Of a stretch of 64,000 bases of DNA, positions 1,982 through 37,173 are shown one piece after another. The position numbers and the translations under genes are program-made. The notes beneath the pieces were generated by a model that worked only from the letters and a program-made list of their open reading frames with translations, was not told the origin of the DNA and searched no databases. Each line of letters opens with the position of its first letter. Positions within the stretch are counted from its first letter, which is position 1. The stretch is from assembly GCA_000004695.1 (NCBI GenBank), contig CM000151.3:3520001-3584000 (forward strand). Direction: 5' to 3'. Source of the DNA: Dictyostelium discoideum (Eukaryota).

Positions 1982-4331
1982 GTTAAACATATTTATATTA
2001 ATCAAAAATAATTATCTTTTTTTATTTTATTTTTTGATCAATAGACCAGATTATATAATTATTCTAACAGTATTCAAAAAAAATAAAAAAAAAAAACATG
2101 ATACACCCATAAAAACTAATGTCATAAATTTTTTTTTTTTTTTTTTTAAGGTGAATTATAATATTTATTTTTTCCATAAATTTTTTATTTACAGCAATAA
2201 ATAATTAAAATTAATTTTCGTTTTTTCATTTTTTTTCATTTTCCATTTTATTTTTTTTTTTAATTCCCAAACACTTTTTTTAATTTTTTCAATTTTTTTT
2301 TTTTTAATTCTCTTAACCAAATATCTATATATTTTAAATTTTTTTTTTAAATTCAAATAAATAAATAAATTAAAATGTTTTCAAAAGGAATCAATATAAT
2401 GGGTCACTCTTAAAATAAAAAAAATAAAACAATAATGATAAAAAAAAAATAAAAATATTAGTGTAATAGGAAATTTATGGACTCAGAAAAACAATATATT
2501 TATTTTTGAAATTGTACCCTCTACAAAGAAAAAAAAAAAAATAATCACACAGAAATAAAATAATTATTTTTTTAATTTATTTTTTTCTTTTTTTTTTTCA
2601 AAACTAATTTTTATATGAAATAAAAAAATAAAAGTAAAAAAAAATAAAAAAAAAGGCAACGAACATACACCAGCACCTCATAAAATTACTTTTCACCACT
2701 GAAATTTTTACATCCCTTACTAATTTTTAATTTCATTTTTTTATTTATTTTTTTCTTTTTTTTTTTTTTTCTTTTTTTTTTTTACTTTTTTTTTTGGTTA
2801 ATAAAAAAATAAATAAATAAATAAACAAATAAAAAAATAAATAAATTTTTTGAGTTAATCTATAAAGCAGGTTTAGCAAATGGAGTTTGGTTTTTAATAT
2901 TTTTAGGGGTATCATTGTTGGTAATTTAGGTACAGCGGCAATAATTGATATAGCAGGTTTAGCAAATGAAGTTTTATTTTTAGGTGATCATTATCGATAT
3001 TGGGATTTGCAACATTGGGTAAACCAGCAAAAGTTAATGGTAAAGGACAAATAGCAGAGAATCAAACTAAGTATTAATATGAACCATCATCAGGAGATAG
3101 GAACAAGATGATACAACAACAACAACAACAACAGGTAAAAGAAAAACTAAAGATACAGACAATAGTTCAAATAAAAAAAGAGTGTAAGTTTTATATTTAA
3201 AGATAGACCAATTCGATTACTGGTGACCATTACTTTATAGTGGTATAAGTCAATCATTCTTTTTTTGGTGTATTCCCTCAATTACTTAGTAAAGAATGGA
3301 TTGGTAAAGCTGTGGCTTTTTTTACGATGCTTCTGTTAGTAATTTCGGAGCTTCACCTGGTAAAGGTAAACAAGCTGCAAAGAATTAGAAAAGATTAAAT
3401 ATTTAGAAATGACATGACGTTAAGCTATTAAAGTTACAAAAATGTAAATAATCATAATAAATTAATAAATCAATAAATCAATAAATTAAAAAATAAATTA
3501 ATTAATAAATAAATAAATAAATAAATAATTAAATAATTTTTAAAAAGTACTCTAATTTTGGAATTATTTGTTTTTTTCTTTTTCTTTTTTTGCTCTAAAA
3601 CTTTTTTTTTTCTTATTTTCATATACACTACTTTTATTTTATTTATTAATTTTGTGCAAATAAAATTAACATAAGAAAATACTCGACACACGAGAAATTT
3701 ATTTTATATTATAATTTTTAATATTATGATTATTTTCATTCTTGAAACTTCTTTAAGTGCTTCACGACAAGCCATATCTGAACATTTAACCATCAAATCA
3801 TTCTATGCAGTTTGATTACCTTCATCAAGTGAAGCACCTAAATAACCACTTCAATAAAAACTATTTTATGTATGTTTTGGACACTTAAGAAAAACTACAG
3901 AGTTTATTTTTCAATTTATCACTATACTGCTCAAATTAACTTAATAAATGACTATATTTTTTAGAAAAAAAAAGTAAAAAATAAAGAAATTCATGACTTA
4001 ATAAAGTAAACAGTGAATCAAAAATGTAAACCGAAGTTATTTGAGGCCATGGTGGATCAGTTGAGACGGCTAATGTGTTTATACCTGAACATGTACATGT
4101 AGTATTGTTCTTCTGTTTATAGAGTTTGGAGTTGGTGATTATATGTACACATTATTATTAAAGAATGAAATTCTTGATTTATACCAATCACTAGATAATT
4201 CAGCATTAACACCAAATATAATACAAGGTCATAGAAAATATTTTGAATAATTGATTTTAAAAGCAAAAAAATTATAAGCATCACATGATAAATTATAAAC
4301 ATTACATGATAAATTTTAAACATATGCACAG

Positions 4332-4786
4332 TTTTTTTTTTTTTTTTTTTTGAATTGGATAACGCAATTATTATTTGCTTCTCCTTGAGATGCTAGATCT
4401 CATTTTATTTTATTTTTTTTTTTTTTTACAGGGTCTCTAAAAGAGGGGTTGGTTTACTTTTTTTTTTTTTTTTTTTTTTTGTTTCGAATTTTGAATTGTA
4501 TTATTACTTTTGATTAAAACATCTTTTTTGTCCAAACTTTTTTCTAAATCTTTTTTTATTTTATCGTCTGGTTCGTGATTGATGTTTATGACGTATTTGA
4601 ATTGTTTTTTTTTTAATTGAGTTTTATCCACAATTTCGCTTATTTTTTGTAGGCATTTGTGTTGCTTAATATTTGTGGTGTTGTTTGTGATTTTCATTTT
4701 ATTTTCTTTCTATTTTTTTTATTTTTCTTTAAAAAGTTAAAAATCTGGAAATTTTCTGATTAACTTGGGTTCCAGGTTTTTTTTTT
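4332..4786 (-). mobile_element. 5'-truncated TRE5-like non-LTR retrotransposon 3' end (C-module-like), flanked by an 18-bp target-site duplication. Itself interrupted by a roughly 115-bp insert (4376..4489).
   Basis: Poly(T) 4332-4350 is the element poly(A) on the minus strand. 4352-4375 and 4490-4560 are the reverse complement of 14366-14447 (the tail of the element next to tRNA-Glu). ttttaaacatatgcacag occurs at 4314-4331 and 4787-4804. The block ends 48 bp upstream of tRNA-Leu. Confidence 0.6.
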
Positions 4787-4787
4787 T

Positions 4788-4844
4788 TAAACATATGCAC
4801 AGGAGTTTGGTGAAAAAATTTTAAACATATGCACGGGAGATTGG
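4788..4844. repeat. Direct repeat taaacatatgcac(a/g)ggag(t/a)ttgg at 4788-4810 and 4822-4844. The second copy overlaps the first 10 nt of tRNA-Leu.
   Basis: Seen directly. A third partial copy at 4314-4331 borders the retroelement poly(T). Confidence 0.8.
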
Positions 4845-4913
4845 TCGAGTGGTTAAGACAATAGATTTAGGCTCTATCCTCCGGGGTCGCGGGTTCGAAC
4901 CCCGCATCTCTCA
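4835..4913 (+). tRNA. tRNA-Leu, anticodon TAG (UAG), class II with a long variable arm.
   Basis: GGGAGAT acceptor pairs with ATCTCTC (one G-U). D-stem GTC/GAC. Anticodon stem ATAGA/TCTAT. Loop TTTAGGC. T-arm GCGGG-TTCGAAC-CCCGC. Discriminator A. Confidence 0.85.
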
Positions 4914-5454
4914 CATTCTTTTTATCCATTTAAATATCTAGATTTCCCTGAAATTTACCTAATAAGGTTAAATAAAATTAAAAAAAGAATGAGGTCAACC
5001 ACATTAAATTGGTAGGAATTTATTTGAGTTTTTACTATTTACGAATAACATTTATTTATTTGATCTATAATTTCATTTTTTTATATATTAACATTATATT
5101 ATTAAGGTTTTTAAAATTTTATTTATTTTTTTTTTTTTTTTATTTTTTTTTTTTTTTTTGAAACTCACACATAATATTGCATGCAGAAATACAAATTTAA
5201 AAAAAATCCGAATTAACACCTATTATTACTAAAATATCTACATCTAGATCAAGTAAATAATTAATTAATATCAAATAAATAATAATAATAAAAATCATAC
5301 ACATTATATGTGCTCATTTTTGAGTAGCTAATCTAAAGAATCTGGTTAAACTTTATATTGTGTGATACTACTGTATGTTAGTATTAGTTGTGCATGTCCT
5401 TGCATCCACTTTACACTGAATGAATAGTAATCAATGTGGTTGGGTCAACTGACA

Positions 5455-5633
5455 TAATTTGCGATATTTGCATGGGAGGTTGGTCAGCTGACATTATTAA
5501 CATTGTTCGCAAGGGAGGTTGGTCAGCTGACATTATTAACATTGTTCGCAAGGGGTAGTTTAGCTGACATTATTAACAATATTGGCATGGGAGGATTGTC
5601 AACTGTCATTATTAACAATATTCACAAGGTCAT
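5455..5633. repeat. About 4 imperfect tandem copies of a roughly 40-bp unit (ggttggtcagctgacattattaacattgttcgcaaggga).
   Basis: Seen directly. Immediately abuts the discoidin pseudogene fragment. Confidence 0.7.
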
Positions 5634-5770
5634 GGTGCTGCTATTACTGGTGTAACTGATCGTATCACTGTTGTTAATCATTTCTTTGATACCCCTATTG
5701 ATGCTCGTTCAATTGCTATCCACTCATTAACCTGGAATAACCACGTTTCATTAAGATGTGATATCTATAG
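5634..5770 (+). pseudogene. Discoidin I internal fragment (about 45 codons, [45 protein letters not shown]) with no start or stop context.
   Basis: About 90% nucleotide identity to 1363..1499 of the intact gene. No flanking ORF continuity. Confidence 0.8.
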
Positions 5771-6532: not shown

Positions 6533-8833
<2,301 letters not shown>

Positions 8834-13027: not shown

Positions 13028-13420
13028 AATTCTTATTATTCTCAATGTCATAAAAACATTTTCATCGCCATATCGCAACATTTTTTAATAATATCTCCCA
13101 AACCATTTTTTTTTTTTTTTTTTTTTTTTCAAAACAATGGTTTATGAAAATTCCACAATTTGAATTTGTTTTGTTGAAAAATGAATATTTAAATTATTAA
13201 TCTTTAAAATTAAATCAAATTGTTAAATTTATAGATAAATATATATAAATCAAATTGAAGTTTAGTAACTTGCGAAAAACCTTACAAAATGTTGAATTTA
13301 TAAGTTATGCAATATAAATATATAAATAAAATATATGTTAAGAAAGAGATAATAATTACAACAAATAAAGAGTTTATTATTGTTATGAAAATTGTAAAAA
13401 CGAAAAACTGTTTATTTTTA

Positions 13421-13550
13421 TTTTTATATTTTCGGTTTTAACTTTTTTTTTTTACCTAAAAGCGGTGTATATTTTCGGTTTTAACCGTTTTTTTTTTTTT
13501 ACCTAAAAGCGGTGTATTTCGGTTTTAACCGAACTTCGTAAAAATATCAA
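13421..13550. repeat. 2-3 tandem copies of a roughly 45-bp unit (acctaaaagcggtgtat(at)tttcggttttaacc-Tn), in the 3' flank of tRNA-Glu.
   Basis: Seen directly. Each unit carries cggttttaaccg, a degenerate B-box-like GGTT...ACC motif. Confidence 0.6.
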
Positions 13551-13565
13551 TTTTAGTAAAAAAAA

Positions 13566-13637
13566 CTCCCCATTCGGGAATCGAACCCGAGGTACCAGTG
13601 TGAAAGACTAGAGTGTTACCGACTACACCAATGAGGA
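13566..13637 (-). tRNA. tRNA-Glu, anticodon TTC (UUC).
   Basis: Reverse complement TCCTCATTGGTGTAGTCGGTAACACTCTAGTCTTTCACACTGGTACCTCGGGTTCGATTCCCGAATGGGGAG. Acceptor TCCTCAT/ATGGGGA. Anticodon stem CTAGT/ACTGG. Loop CTTTCAC. T-loop TTCGATT. Confidence 0.85.
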
Positions 13638-13683
13638 ATTATATGGAAATATTTGATTAAACAAGAAAATTTAATTATTTTAT

Positions 13684-14457
13684 TTATATGAACACCATCC
13701 AAAATTAACTCCTGGCCAAAAAGAAATAATGATCAAAATGAATAGCAAACACCTTCCATTTAAAGAAATTAAAAAAATAATAAACATGGAAGGTAGAGAC
13801 CTATTATGGAGATACACACAGAAAGCACTACCAAAAATATACAACATGCCATGCCAACAGTATGGGGAAGATGAGACTTCAGAACATATATTCTTCAACT
13901 GCAAAGCCCACATCAAAAACACACAAGAAATCTTCAACTACACATTAACCAAGTGTGGACACACCTGGAATGTTAAGATTTTAAACCATCTACAAATTGC
14001 ACTAATATCCAATTTAATAGCTATTATATTCGAAAAAATTTGGCACAAAAGAAACAAACTCATCCACGATGAAATAGAAATAGTAATTCATAGACAACAA
14101 GTCATACGTGAACTAATTAAAACACAAAGAGTTGCATGGGATAGGACACAAGCGGTTATAAACAAAACATTAAGAATCAAATCAAAGCAATGGCCAGAAG
14201 AACAAAATAAATTAGACTCATTAATCTCTAAAGTTATTACAATTTAACAGACAATGGAACTCACCTCTTCACGCAATAGCACTTCCCAAACATCTCAAAA
14301 AATACAATAATTCACTCAGTACTCTCTATAAATGAAAAAAAAAAAAAAAAAAAAAAAATATAAAAAAAGATTTAGAAAAAAATTTGGACAAAAAAGATGT
14401 TTTAATCAAAAGTAATAATACATTCAAAATTGCGTTATCCAATTCAAAAAAAAAATA
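13684..14457 (+). mobile_element. 5'-truncated TRE5-like non-LTR retrotransposon: ORF2 C-terminal portion (13729..14247, Cys/His-rich tail HIFFNCKAHIKNTQEIFNYTLTKCGH), A-rich tract, then C-module-like tail and oligo(A).
   Basis: The element's 5' junction is about 46 bp upstream of tRNA-Glu on the opposite strand. The tail 14366-14447 is repeated inverted at 4352-4560. Candidate TSD ttaattattt at 13672-13681 and 14458-14468. Confidence 0.6.
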
Positions 14458-14820
14458 ATTATTTAATTTAATATTCAAAAGAAATAATTATTAAATTTCA
14501 ACAATTTACAAATATTAATCAAATCTCTTCTTTCAAAATCACTAAATTAATAATTTACAGTTTGATATTTATTCAAACTCTGTATTCATAAAAACTCAAT
14601 TATCAATTTACATATTACAAAAACCGATTAACATAATTATAAAAATCTAAAATTAATATCTAAATAATATTACAAAAATTTCAGTACAAAATTAAATTTT
14701 ATTTAAAATTCTATTAAAATAAATTAAAAATTGTATAAATAAATAAATAAATAAATAAAACTAAAAATTAAATTAAACTAAATAAATACCATATAAATAA
14801 ATAAATTAAAATTAGTTATA

Positions 14821-15040
14821 TTCACTGCAGCTTTACATTTTGTATTCAATAGCTATTGGCATAATTAGGAGATGTGATAAAGTCAGAATTAGATAAGGTC
14901 ATTCTATAGAAAAAGGATCGAATATTCCCTTTTGATATAATGGTCATCTCTGTAGATTATAACCAAAGTAGGCTATTACATTTGGCGACATTGCTTGTTA
15001 GAATCAACAACCAGCCCAAGTAAAAAAAAAAAAAAAAATA
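14821..15040 (+). mobile_element. GC-richer roughly 200-bp block ending in A16, possibly the 3' end of another retroelement. Identity unknown.
   Basis: Composition island followed by a poly(A) tract 15025-15040. No ORF. Confidence 0.25.
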
Positions 15041-15484
15041 TAAACAAAGTTTAATAAAAAAAAAAATATAAACAAAATTTAATTATTAAATTACATTGTT
15101 AATATTAATAAGTTTTTAATAAAATTAATAGTAATTGTAACAAGATCTCAAAAAAATATCTTGTTAATACTAATATTTATTTAATTTTATGAAATGTTCT
15201 AAACAGAACATTTAAAAAATAACTATTAATATTGAATTGATAATTCAATATTAATTATTACTAACTTAATTCATTTTAATAAATTGTTTCATTTTATATA
15301 ATAAACTCACTAAACACAACTAAACAATAATTCAAAAATAAATAATAATAATTTAGAATATAGTTTTGTTTCAACATTTTGTTATGACACATACAATTCA
15401 GAAAATAATAATAATTTATTTTATTGTTTTGTTTAAAGGGGTTTTCTCCCGTTGTAATTTAATTTTAAAATTAAATTTAATTTT

Positions 15485-15526
<42 letters not shown>

Positions 15527-15639
15527 AAATTAATTTGAATTTCACAAAAGTTTTCATAACAGATATTAGATACCAGATATTAAAAATGCCACACACAAAA
15601 TCACCATATAAAATAATAATTAAATTAAAATAATATAAT

Positions 15640-18600
15640 ATTGTAGTTTAAATTGGATCTAACCCTATCGGCCGAGGTTGGAGTAGTTAATAGATTTGAG
15701 TTCGCTCAAATCTAAGGACTATAAAAGGAAACTAGGTTTCCAATTCAACCTCAGTAGTAAATATATACAAACAATAAAAACACGATAGGGCTACGGTCAT
15801 TAATTAATTTTGTGTACATTTATTTCTTAAATAATTAATCATTTTACTTTAATAATAGAATAAATAAATAATTAAATTTTATTAAATAATTTATTTTAAG
15901 AGAATGTCAACTAATAATAACGAAGATATTGATAATGATGAATTGCAACAACAGGATAATGAGGAACAACAGCAACAACCACAGGTATCAACATTCAATG
16001 AACAGCAACGTCAGATAAGGGAACAGCAGCAGGTAATAGATAAACAAAATCAACTTCTTCAACAACACATTCAATTAATAAATCAACAATCTCAACAACA
16101 ATTGAATAATCATACGACACCACCATCATCACCCAACATTACAACACCAATAACTTCAGCAGCAATAACCAACACAATAAAGAAATCATTAGGAAAAATT
16201 AACACTGATGATACCGACCACCAGTTGTTACAGTAATGATTACAATTAAACAATAATAATTAAAATAATAATTTATTTAGTTTTATATAATTTAGAGTTT
16301 TCATTCGAAACTTCTCGGTCGAAAATTGTAAAAACTAAAAAAAAATAAAGTTAGTTCTGATTGACCTTTACAGCATTCTTATAATATTAATTGTTTTCCT
16401 TTGTTTACTAAGACAAAAACATTAAAGCATAACCCAAACACACTCAAACTCAAACACATATCAACAATTGATGGTAGAGCTATTTTAGCAGACGTTATAT
16501 TTCCAAATCAATTACCAATTGGTATTCTTGGAATTTATGCACCAGCATCAAATGATACCATCAAAAAGAATTCATAACAACTTCACTACAAACACTTCTC
16601 CACAACCACTCAACAAACCCAATACCAAACCAATCCCAACATGTATCTATTATCGCAGGCGATTTCAACTGTATCCACAACGACAATTCACTATTAGACG
16701 ATATTATCCAATCCTACACATACCAACACCATCTAATTGATCAAGGTGAATTTAAAAACACTCCAACTCATACACATGGCAACAGATTAGATAGAATATA
16801 TACTCATTACAATAGAATAGACCCTGAAAATTTATACACAAGTCCACCAAATTCCATCTTCATTATCAGATCATAATCCAGTATCAACAACAATTTCTTC
16901 ACCTTTTCAAATAAATAAACATAAGAAAAGATGGATATTATCACCTGGTACTGCAAATGACCATGAAGCAATCAATATTATCAATCATTTAATAACTAAT
17001 CACAATAACACATCAATCAATCAATTTACAAATTGGTCAAAAGTAAAATCAAAAATTATTAAAACTCTAAAAAACTATCAATATAACAAAGACAAACAAA
17101 CTCAACGTGCAAAACAAATACTATTAGAAAAAGCAGCAAAATTTAAACATCTTGAAAAACAATGCATCGCTGAATACAATATTATATGTAACAAAAACAA
17201 ATTACATCAAAACCACACAAACAAATAAAGGAGAAATACCTATAAGTATCTATCAGCAATACTAAACAAAGATCAAAAGATGCAAAAATTACCTTCTGAG
17301 AATACTTCCCTTCATCGTCAACATCAACCAAACTGGTTTCGTACCCTACAGATTTATCATAGACAACATCATCAACATCAATGAATTAATCAACTACCTC
17401 AAATCTAAAAACCTCCCTGGTAACATCACACTATTTGACTTCTTTAAAGCATTTGATTCTCACGATAGTATTAAAAGAACATTAATTCATATTGGTATAC
17501 CAATAAAATTAATAAATATAATCCACAAGCTTTTATCTGACTCACAAGCAAAAATTTCAATTAATGGTAAAACGACTAGAAAATTCGATATTAAAAGTTG
17601 TGTAAAACAAGGTGACCCAATCTCAGCCACTTTATTTGTAATTGTAATTGAAATATTAGCAAGAACAATAAATGCAGACAATACAATAATTGGATTACCA
17701 ATTTCACCCAATCCACAAATTAAAATCAAATTTACCCAATTTGCAGAAGACTCTACAACATACAACATCAACTACGAACAACAACAACAATCAATCAAAC
17801 ATTTCGATAATTTCTGCGCTTCAACATCATCATCATTAAATTTTGACAAAAGTGCAATAATAGAAATCAACCCCCACAAAATCACTGATAAACACTTAAT
17901 AAACAACATTCCACAATCAAAAAGAATACCAATAACCAAAAAAGATCAATCAGAAAGAGTTCTTGGCTATTTCTTTAATCATAATGGTTTACATAGGAAA
18001 TTACCAGAAACAATGAAAACACTGATCAAATCATTAGTACTATGGAAAACTAGTGGCACAACATTAAAAACAAAAACAACCATCATAAACACTTACTCAC
18101 TATCACCAATAACATATTTATCATACCTTGAAGAATTTACAAAAGATGAAGAAATTCAAATTAATAAATTAATCTCATGGTTTATGAATTCTCCCGCAAA
18201 TTCTGAATCACCAACTCTCAATACCAATTCCATTGAAAACAACACATCAACCATCCATTCACGTGCAAAAATACCTTTGATGTGTTATGATAGATCATTA
18301 AAACTATTAAAAGAAGGTGGTTGGGGTATGTGGAATATACAATTACGACAAGCTGCTCAAAAGATTTGGATATACAACATATTTTTACAAATGCATAAAT
18401 CTGCAAACAATTCAATATACATGATAAGTTGGATGGATCAAATCATCAACAAGTCAATCTCTTCTCCATTCCTTATAAAAATCAAAAAAGAATGGGAAAA
18501 CTATGCAACTCAAATTAGATATCTAAAAGATAAAATTCAAACCCTACAACCAATATTAATAAAAAACCAAACCACTCAAACATTAACCACAAATAATATT

Positions 18601-19647
18601 TCACTACCACCAACACTCAAAGAAATCTACTCGACAATACTCAACAATCACCAATGTAAATCAAAAGACTATATAGGAAAGAAATATTCAGATCTACTTC
18701 TTACTTCGCACCAACAATCAATATAACTATTATGGAAATACACATACGACCAACTATTTGTCAAAATTCAAAAATTAAAAGATCCAAAAGGCCGTGATAC
18801 AATGCAAAGATTCCATGCTAGATGTCTTCCGATTAATCATCTACACAACAAAGTTTGCTCCATTTGCAACAATGAAATGAATAATGATCCCTATGGTCAT
18901 TTGTTTTTCAATTGTCAGCACACAATCAACTTCATAAACCACGACAAATTAAAATATTTTATATATAAAAATTGCAATGGAAACAAAAACTGGTCACTAA
19001 CAAAAAACCAAACAACAAAATTATACACACTCATTTATAAACCACAAACAAACAACAAAGCATTTAAACCAGATCCAACTATCAATATTAATTTTCATTT
19101 TGCAGAAAACGCACAATATAAAAAATACAGGTTCAACTGGAATTATATAAACACAAATCTTGATCTAGTCAGAACACATGCATATTGGAACATAATCTCA
19201 TTAGTTATTCACCAAATATGGATATGGTTATGCAAATCATTATTTGACATCAATATAACTCAATCAATTGACAATTGGAACAACCAAATAAACAACACAA
19301 CACTAGATTATGATATATTAAAATCAAAATGGCACAAGCTAATAAGATTGGAATATTCCAGAACATTATCAAACTTTAACCAATACTCAATTAAAAACAA
19401 CCTCACAAAAACTCAAAAAGAAACCCAATGGCCCGAAACCATCAAAAAATTTAAAAAAGAATGGAGCATAAACACAAACCAATGCTGAAACCAATTCCAA
19501 CAATTACACCACCAATTAATTATTAATTACCTAATCTAAAATAACATACCATTTTAAATTCACAAAAACTAAAAAACCTAAAATAAATAAATAAAGTACT
19601 AATTGTATACTACAATAGTTTATTTATATCAAAAAAAAAAAAAAAAA
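15640..19647 (+). mobile_element. Degenerate TRE3-like non-LTR retrotransposon. It has a Q-rich ORF1-like ORF (15904..16236), an ORF2 with APE-type endonuclease (about 16440-16960, several stops), reverse transcriptase (about 17340-18000, FDFFKAFDS...CVKQGDPISATLFVIVIE), a Cys/His tail (about 18800-19490), a 3' module and A17.
   Basis: RT and EN motifs readable but interrupted by frameshifts and stops. Its poly(A) end lies about 50 bp from the 3' end of tRNA-Phe, i.e. downstream of the tRNA. The terminal region differs from the TRE5-like tails. Confidence 0.65.
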
Positions 19648-19654
19648 TTAAAGC

Positions 19655-19690
19655 AGAGATCGAACTTGCGATCAAAGGATTTTTGTGTGT
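19655..19690 (-). promoter_or_regulatory. External B-box (exB) downstream of tRNA-Phe: AGTTCGATCTC on the tRNA strand.
   Basis: Matches the pol III B-box consensus GGTTCGANTCC, about 25 bp 3' of the tRNA. Confidence 0.5.
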
Positions 19691-19697
19691 AAAAATT

Positions 19698-19771
19698 TGC
19701 CTCAGGCCGGGATCGAACCAGCGACCTTAAGATCTTCAGTCTCACGCTCGTACCAACTGAGCTACTAAGGC
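19698..19771 (-). tRNA. tRNA-Phe, anticodon GAA.
   Basis: Reverse complement GCCTTAGTAGCTCAGTTGGTACGAGCGTGAGACTGAAGATCTTAAGGTCGCTGGTTCGATCCCGGCCTGAGGCA, very close to canonical eukaryotic tRNA-Phe. Confidence 0.9.
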
Positions 19772-20441
19772 TTGGTGAAAATGTAAATTTTATTAGCAGT
19801 TACAATATTAAGAAAAATTCAAAAAAAAAAAATTATAATTTTTTTTTTCTATTTGTTCAGGATTACAATAACAAATTAATTTTAAATAAAAAATTTACTT
19901 TTATTCGAACAAAAATCAAATGAAATTTCAAAACTCAATATAAATAAAAAAAAATGGTTTTTGTTATTCCTTCGAATAAAATATAATAAAGATAAATATT
20001 CAGCGCACATTATTTAAATTATATTAAAATTTAAATATATATTAAAATAATAGTAATCCTTAGTATCACTAATCAAATATATATTTAGATATAATTTAAT
20101 TGTTTAATTAAATTTTATATTTAATTAAAAAAAAAAAGGAAAGGAAAGGAAAGGAAAGTATTTAAAGAATTCGGGACAATTCAACTATAAAAAGAAGCCA
20201 ACCTTCTAATTTACCAAGAAAAATCATAAAGAGGTTGGGTACGTAGCCAAATTTATATGTTATTTCTTTAAGTTTATTTAAAAAAAAAAAAAAAAAAAGT
20301 AATAAATGGCTTTAAAATTTATTTATTATTAGTATTACTATTATCTTTTTTTAATGAAACTTAAATAAATATGAAAACATATTATACAAATAATTGTTTA
20401 TTATTATTATTATTTTTTTTTTTTTTTTTTTTTTTTTTTTC

Positions 20442-36411: not shown

Positions 36412-37173
36412 ATGTCTACCCAAGGTTTAGTTCAACTCCTCGCAAATGCTCAATGCCATTTAAGAACCTCAACCAATTACAATGGTGTCCACACTCAATT
36501 TAATTCTGCCTTAAACTACAAAAACAATGGTACCAATACCATTGATGGTTCAGAAGCTTGGTGTTCATCAATCGTAGATACCAACCAATACATTGTTGCT
36601 GGTTGTGAAGTTCCACGTACTTTTATGTGTGTTGCTCTCCAAGGTCGTGGTGATGCTGATCAATGGGTTACATCATACAAAATCCGTTATTCATTAGATA
36701 ATGTTTCCTGGTTTGAATATCGTAATGGTGCTGCTGTTACTGGTGTAACTGATCGTAACACTGTTGTTAATCATTTCTTTGATACTCCAATTAGAGCTCG
36801 TTCAATTGCTATCCACCCATTAACCTGGAATGGTCACATTTCATTAAGATGTGAATTCTACACTCAACCAGTACAAAGCTCAGTCACTCAAGTTGGTGCA
36901 GATATTTACACTGGTGATAACTGTGCCTTAAATACCGGTTCAGGTAAACGTGAAGTTGTTGTCCCAGTTAAATTCCAATTTGAATTTGCTACTCTCCCAA
37001 AGGTTGCTCTCAACTTTGATCAAATCGATTGTACTGATGCCACCAATCAAACCCGTATTGGTGTCCAACCAAGAAATATTACCACCAAAGGTTTTGATTG
37101 TGTTTTCTACACTTGGAATGAAAACAAAGTTTACTCATTAAGAGCTGATTACATTGCTACCGCTTTGGAATAA
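36412..37173 (+). CDS. Discoidin I, third copy (253 aa). About 95% nucleotide identity to 1045..1806.
   Basis: [42 protein letters not shown]...ATALE. Confidence 0.95.

Follow-up and report, generated by a model that had tools for sequence, protein, structure and literature searches.

Two questions are raised by a locus on contig CM000151.3 of Dictyostelium discoideum (assembly GCA_000004695.1): how much of a TRE3-family retrotransposon lies downstream of its gene for tRNA-Phe(GAA), and how the element came to face this gene in the orientation opposite to that of its relatives. The window analyzed comprises 64,000 nucleotides (positions 3,520,001 to 3,584,000 of the forward strand), and coordinates given without a locus name refer to it. 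With a probability of about 0.8, we read positions 16420–19647 as a dead-on-arrival copy of TRE3 (subfamily TRE3-A or TRE3-B), inserted beside tRNA-Phe in reverse, and positions 15136–16232 as a separate mobile element, further referred to as element X. The family of the copy, its boundaries, its target-site duplication, its lesions and its position relative to the tRNA gene and the external B box are direct observations.

The window was compared with relatives of the element from nine loci (L001 etc.) taken from an independent D. discoideum assembly. TRE3 homology was determined using blastn against a full-length reference built from L001 and tblastn with the protein encoded by open reading frame 2 (ORF2), P0001. 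Lesions were called against a four-copy consensus. Genes for tRNAs were identified with ARAGORN and Rfam, and protein domains with Pfam. External B boxes were scored by the core consensus GTTCRAnYC (PMC3159450) downstream of 11 tRNA genes from the window and the fetched loci. The A+T content of the window is 80–85%.

The first-pass annotation of this DNA had described a nearly full-length element of about 4 kb that starts at 15640 and carries an ORF1-like region. TRE3 homology is in fact confined to positions 16420–19647, or 3.2 kb of 5.26 kb; in comparison with six full-length or long copies it starts at 16420, approximately at consensus position 1560 of 5256. By blastn, positions 16420–17289 correspond to consensus positions 1559–2434 and positions 17293–19647 to 2906–5250, at 94–97% identity. 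By tblastn, the window covers amino acids 80–377 and 533–1259 of P0001, amino acids 378–532 being absent. Outside indels the fragment is 98.2% identical to the four-copy consensus. The full-length relatives, about 5.26 kb long, encode a 402-aa ORF1 (402 aa in L004) that overlaps the 1275-aa ORF2 by ATGA, and this ORF1 has no match anywhere in the window. Judging by these alignments, the window copy is truncated at about codon 80 of ORF2 and lacks the 5’ untranslated region (UTR), all of ORF1 and ORF2 codons 1–79. The two-ORF structure of intact elements is not seen here because the copy is 5’-truncated.

The proposed assignment to TRE3 and not TRE5 agrees with the best matches. The translation from the reverse transcriptase (RT) to the tail is 96% identical to DDB_G0291958, whose 90% cluster includes the GenBank ‘pol’ entry AAD43057.1 (Q9Y1H5), and the DNA is 94–97% identical to 5.26-kb elements placed downstream of tRNA genes. 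Gene model P0003 (DDB_G0273263 / DDB_G0273901) reproduces the locus residue for residue, private changes included; by its sequence, the element is a known TRE3 copy, already annotated in strain AX4 as DDB_G0273263. The published consensus lengths are 5229 bp for TRE3-A, 5279 bp for TRE3-B and 4734 bp for TRE3-C (PMC5006619, Table 1). The full-length copies studied here (about 5.23–5.26 kb) fall between the published 5229 and 5279 bp, so that length does not separate TRE3-A from TRE3-B; TRE3-C is ruled out by the same measure. As far as similarity and length can tell, the subfamily is one of the two of about 5.2–5.3 kb, that is, TRE3-A or TRE3-B. We lean towards TRE3-B, an inference from dates: AAD43057 was deposited in 1999, and Tdd-3/TRE3-A was published in 1998.

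The region taken for ORF1 belongs to element X. It consists of a Q-rich ORF of 110 codons (15904–16236), which reaches the last base of X and borrows its stop codon from the flank. This ORF does precede the ORF2 remnant on the same strand, and in another assembly the two are fused by one automatic gene model (P0058), as would be expected of a near full-length TRE3 at 15640–19647 that has its own ORF1 and is inserted canonically beside tRNA-Phe. Such a parse is highly improbable. The true ORF1 of 402 aa is unrelated to the 110-aa product (no similarity; best blastp E=1.9), homology to the six full-length or long copies starts only at 16420, the TRE3 duplication is situated at 16412–16419 and not near 15640, and the orientation is the reverse of the canonical one. 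Moreover, the segment 15136–16232 has inverted termini and a 5-bp duplication of its own and interrupts ORF2 of another TRE3 copy.

The latter copy is the full-length TRE3 of L001, where a second X (L001 positions 7192–8329, duplication AACT) is inserted into ORF2. The two X regions, 15125–16252 in the window and 7183–8348 in L001, are 93.5% identical, and the site at which X is inserted in L001 reads without a break (TAATAACT/AATCAC) in the window and other copies. X elements have 8-bp inverted ends of the form TG...CA and 4–5-bp duplications. Since X has its own termini and duplication and was inserted into the TRE3 ORF2 of L001, we consider it an independent mobile element. X and the TRE3 copy are separated by 187 bp (16233–16419), which represent the old downstream flank of tRNA-Phe. 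Of the three X copies seen, two are located within or next to a TRE3, and the automatic gene models P0002 and P0058 fuse X to TRE3 ORF2.

The domain order of the remaining TRE3 sequence is APE–RT–Cys/His, and the APE, RT and Cys/His regions noticed at first pass are all there: SDHNPV, FDFFKAFDS, CVKQGDPIS and CX2CX10HX4C are seen in the three-frame translation, and Pfam matches Exo_endo_phos (PF03372, E-value 3.5e-7) and RVT_1 (PF00078, 1.1e-14). Two deletions disrupt the APE remnant: 1 bp is lost after 16576 and 2 bp after 16829. In total, frameshifting deletions of 1, 2, 14, 1 and 1 bp are found after 16576, 16829, 17226, 17242 and 17267. The N-terminal motifs of the RT were lost with the 469 bp deleted after 17290 (junction 17290/17291), and the RT active site reads FAED in the window copy vs FADD in relatives (D>E). 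Further indels comprise two 6-bp deletions, one after 17457 and one in the 3’ UTR, and 8 bp inserted at 19480, at the end of ORF2. The frameshift previously placed between 18726 and 18802 does not exist, the only change there being an in-frame CAA>TAA substitution; the real frameshifts are those at 16576–17267 and the 469-bp deletion. The verdict that the copy is dead holds, and the copy could never have been autonomous. Its 3’ end, ...TAGTTTATTTATATC-A(n), is common to eight other copies.

The distance from the A17 tail to the 3’ end of tRNA-Phe, estimated at first pass as about 50 bp, is exactly 50 nt. On the plus strand the tail is followed by TTAAAGCAGAGATCGAACTTGCGATCAA and then by the 3’ end of the tRNA gene, and the flank of tRNA-Phe includes ...AAAAACATTAAAGCAGAGATCGAAC... 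Read on the tRNA strand, the flank has the structure tRNA-N32-GTTCGATCTC, preceded by GATCGCAA. The minus-strand sequence AGTTCGATCTC at 19656–19666 bears the extended signature GATCGCAAGTTCGATC. In 9 of the 11 tRNA genes, a core match of at least 8/9 starts 29–50 nt past the tRNA, in most cases with the prefix GATCG-NN, the expected number of such matches being about 0.03 per 40 nt. Because the same motif with the same spacing is found in 9 of 11 tRNA genes against this low background, the B-box-like sequence reported beside the tail is a genuine, canonically placed external B box of tRNA-Phe.

The insertion is framed by the direct duplication TTAAAGCA. Of the two places around which a duplication was to be sought (15640 and 19648), only the second has a copy, at 19648–19655; the left copy is at 16412–16419, immediately before the start of TRE3 homology. 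Recurrence of a random 8-mer at such a junction by chance has p<=0.006 in the window. The truncated 5’ end and the flanking TTAAAGCA copies are therefore the signature of a 5’-truncated target-primed insertion. The duplication occupies positions +43 to +50 from the tRNA gene, 1 nt past the B-box core. Other copies begin 32–73 nt after the tRNA, with duplications inside the external B box or at most about 30 nt past it. The published distance range of TRE3 downstream of tRNA genes is 14–228 bp (PMC5006619, Table 1; see also PMC5911963), and 50 bp falls within it.

The position thus bears out the suggested TRE3 targeting downstream of a tRNA gene, at 50 bp by an external B box; the orientation is opposite to the family norm. 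TRE3 integrates in the transcription orientation of the tRNA according to a review (PMC5911963). Five copies that adjoin tRNA genes and belong to the same family were compared, those of L003 (tRNA-Gln), L004 (tRNA-Lys, in tandem), L005 (tRNA-Thr), L006 (tRNA-Asn) and L009 (tRNA-Ala). All five are co-oriented with the tRNA, with the 5’ end proximal and 32–73 bp after it. The same holds for four mini poly(A) insertions that belong to another family (TACACCGCTTTTAGGT-An): each shares the orientation of its tRNA. In the window, the TRE3 copy occupies the plus strand and tRNA-Phe the minus strand; the two are convergent and the tail is proximal, which the first-pass annotation did not point out.

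One could suppose that this layout is secondary, either because a canonical insertion later underwent inversion or recombination or because it is an assembly artefact. TRE-rich regions are hard to assemble, and inverted TRE copies could recombine so as to turn a segment around. In the independent assembly GCA_054883475.1, however, the orthologous 19.6 kb are 99.6% identical and collinear with the same junctions, which argues against misassembly. A later inversion is argued against by the direct duplications, which match at both ends of the fragment and point to an insertion intact in situ; the flanks, in turn, are unique sequence. A secondary origin is very improbable, hardly more credible than the near full-length parse.

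The copy could also be a canonical, co-oriented insertion downstream of some other plus-strand target of RNA polymerase III (Pol III) left of 16420, e.g. a lost tRNA gene or a cryptic B box, with the proximity of tRNA-Phe incidental. A 7/9 B-box-like motif, ATTCGAAAC (16299–16307), does occur upstream of the 5’ junction, about 110 nt away, and D. discoideum tRNA genes can form inverted pairs, as in L002. L001 provides a precedent for insertion away from tRNA genes: the full-length TRE3 at L001 5054–11450 (duplication TCATCATTTC) lies within a polyketide-synthase-like gene, no tRNA gene was detected by ARAGORN in this 19-kb locus, and the B-box-like sequence GAGATCGATTC is located about 65 nt upstream of the TRE3 5’ end. 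In the window, on the other hand, Rfam finds no plus-strand tRNA-like sequence upstream of the element (none in 13300–20000 even at E<=5), and the 186 nt left of the 5’ junction contain neither a B-box core match of at least 8/9 nor the GATCG signature. Furthermore, measured from the tRNA and from its external B box, the insertion point falls exactly within the range used by other copies; by our estimate, such placement by chance would apply to approximately 0.1% of genomic sites, given 418 tRNA genes in a genome of about 34 Mb. We regard another target as unlikely, though a more serious contender than a rearrangement.

The preferred reading remains reverse insertion beside tRNA-Phe, and it would proceed by target-primed reverse transcription. 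The first step would be a nick by the endonuclease of the element, 43–50 nt downstream of tRNA-Phe(GAA) and immediately beyond the external B box; from this nick the poly(A) RNA would have been copied. Copying or joining probably stopped early, at about element nucleotide 1560, and with such a stop the 5’ UTR, ORF1 and the first 79 ORF2 codons were never inserted. Staggered nicks would account for the TTAAAGCA duplication. Subsequent decay presumably brought the 469-bp loss in the RT, the five small frameshifting deletions, the in-frame stop, the 8-bp insertion and the D>E change in the active site. Going by what is published on TRE elements, the site may have been recognized via a Pol III factor on the B boxes; guidance of integration by such a factor is established by experiment for TRE5-A only (PMC3159450, PMC5911963). 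The event appears to be a rare integration at the usual site, with the opposite DNA strand nicked first. Tentatively, the TRE3 machinery may dock past the external B box and yet nick the opposite strand first, in which case the choice of site and the choice of strand would be separable.

Some points weigh against this interpretation. The orientation norm was drawn from only five tRNA-adjacent copies, and inverted copies may be commoner than they appear. The duplication is 8–9 bp long in AT-rich DNA and could arise by chance with a probability of up to about 0.6%. Finally, the literature examined contains no experimental demonstration that TRE3 targeting is mediated by TFIIIC.

Table 1. Features of the locus downstream of tRNA-Phe(GAA); coordinates are positions in the window.
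Feature	Coordinates	Strand	Remarks
Element X	15136–16232	+	1097 bp; termini TGTAACAA...TTGTTACA; 5-bp duplication GTAAT at 15131–15135 and 16233–16237
Span between target-site duplication copies TTAAAGCA	16412–19655		Left copy 16412–16419, right copy 19648–19655
5’-truncated TRE3-family non-LTR (non-long terminal repeat) retrotransposon	16420–19647	+	3228 bp, ~61% of the 5.26-kb full-length element; blastn, tblastn, gene model
APE endonuclease remnant	16422–16885	+	C-terminal ~60% only; PF03372 profile positions 134–225 of 225; tblastn pieces in three frames
Reverse transcriptase remnant	17287–17889	+	Pfam PF00078
In-frame nonsense codon TAA	18724–18726	+	CAA in intact copies; frame unbroken across; no indel in the alignment
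Zinc-knuckle Cys/His motif CX2CX10HX4C of ORF2	18856–18915	+	CSICNNEMNNDPYGHLFFNC; from translation; conserved in P0001, P0010, P0011
A17 tail	19631–19647	+	Directly after TAGTTTATTTATATC
External B box of tRNA-Phe, TTGATCGCAAGTTCGATCTC	19656–19675	-	Core GTTCGATCT fits GTTCRAnYC at 8/9; begins 33 nt past the tRNA end
tRNA-Phe(GAA) gene	19698–19771	-	ARAGORN; Rfam RF00005, 62.5 bits

In its APE/RT/Cys-His ORF2, poly(A) tail, variable-length duplication and location downstream of a tRNA gene by the external B box, the window copy is like the TRE3 elements (TRE3-A, identical with Tdd-3, and TRE3-B), and its 5’ truncation is typical of target-primed reverse transcription. It differs from them in being reversed relative to the tRNA and in lacking ORF1 and 39% of the element. 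TRE5 elements (TRE5-A/DRE) are related elements of the L1 clade, have the same order of ORF2 domains and are likewise tethered to tRNA genes; they insert upstream of tRNA genes at a distance of about 50 bp, the 5’ end turned towards that of the tRNA, whereas the window element is downstream. No similarity of at least 70% was found between it and the C-terminal TRE5 ORF of the window. Membership in TRE5 is ruled out by the location on the 3’ side of the tRNA and by ORF2 matching the family with tRNA-downstream copies.

Retroelement remains adjoin other tRNA genes of the window as well, as the first-pass annotation implied in calling the region a tRNA-associated retroelement nest: TRE5-type fragments are situated on the upstream side of both tRNA-Leu and tRNA-Glu, and downstream of tRNA-Glu there are two mini poly(A) insertions. 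The fragment by tRNA-Glu (13687–14458, plus strand) is 5’-truncated, consists of a C-terminal piece of ORF2 and a shared 3’ module of about 100 bp, and lies about 49 bp upstream of the tRNA in the published head-to-head arrangement. Upstream of tRNA-Leu there are TRE5-type 3’ fragments (4334–4790, minus strand) with three occurrences of AAACATATGCACRG, at 4320, 4790 and 4823; this triplet suggests two successive insertions. The mini insertions consist of TACACCGCTTTTAGGT and poly(A) only and were found at 13440–13530 (minus strand) downstream of tRNA-Glu, at about 5798 in L004 and at about 10369 in L009. Each has a 13–15-bp duplication (CGGTTAAAACCGAAA in the window, where two copies are in tandem) and has the orientation of the tRNA next to it; they resemble copies of a third TRE3-like family with extreme 5’ truncation. 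The TRE3 tandem downstream of tRNA-Lys in L004 (400–520 and 5770–5860) has its outer duplication CTATATTTTTAG upstream of the sole external-B-box-like sequence, GGTTCAAATCC. This box seems to lie inside inserted DNA; 5’ extension from another locus or rearrangement are possible causes.

Element X has further features of its own. Inside it are an A38 tract and a GC-richer segment of 146 nt (15655–15800, plus strand), which is predicted to form a multi-branched fold of -50.3 kcal/mol (z = -8.3 vs shuffles) and includes the perfect hairpin GATTTGAG-TTCG-CTCAAATC. Rfam yields no match within X, the folding segment included, and none of the miRNA sequences of Table 2 in PMC4894637, a table that does not contain the thug-S-derived ones, occurs in the window. 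The X ORF has only four homologues, weak or partial and all unnamed. The adjacent segment 14458–15136, considered as a possible further element, shows no similarity to any fetched locus. Going by its structural traits, X may be akin to thug-S or to Tdd-4/DDT-type derivatives, which is a guess. With such small non-autonomous TG...CA transposons, X would share the length of about 1.1 kb, the short inverted termini, the 4–5-bp duplications and the location in or beside transposons; it would differ from them in its open-ended 110-codon ORF.

Tdd-2 and Tdd-3 elements near discoidin genes were reportedly described by Poole and Firtel. Two intact discoidin-I genes (1045–1806 and 36412–37173) are also present in the window, which, with gene model P0003, identifies this stretch as part of chromosome 2 of AX4, its discoidin-I region. 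Between the two genes, at about 5630–5760 (plus strand), a short discoidin-I-like pseudogene fragment follows direct repeats of about 55 bp (5440–5620).

For the reference genome of this model organism the locus changes little, since the retrotransposon family is well described and this defective copy of it is already annotated. The annotation gains corrected TRE3 boundaries, a separate 1.1-kb element and the recognition of gene models that wrongly fuse the two. To our knowledge, the targeting of TRE3 has never been dissected experimentally, unlike that of TRE5-A. A reversed copy at the canonical distance from the B box is a piece of natural evidence on the strictness with which the Pol III machinery orients the integration complex; if the choices of site and strand are indeed separable, inverted copies would mark how rigidly Pol III factors hold the complex of the element.

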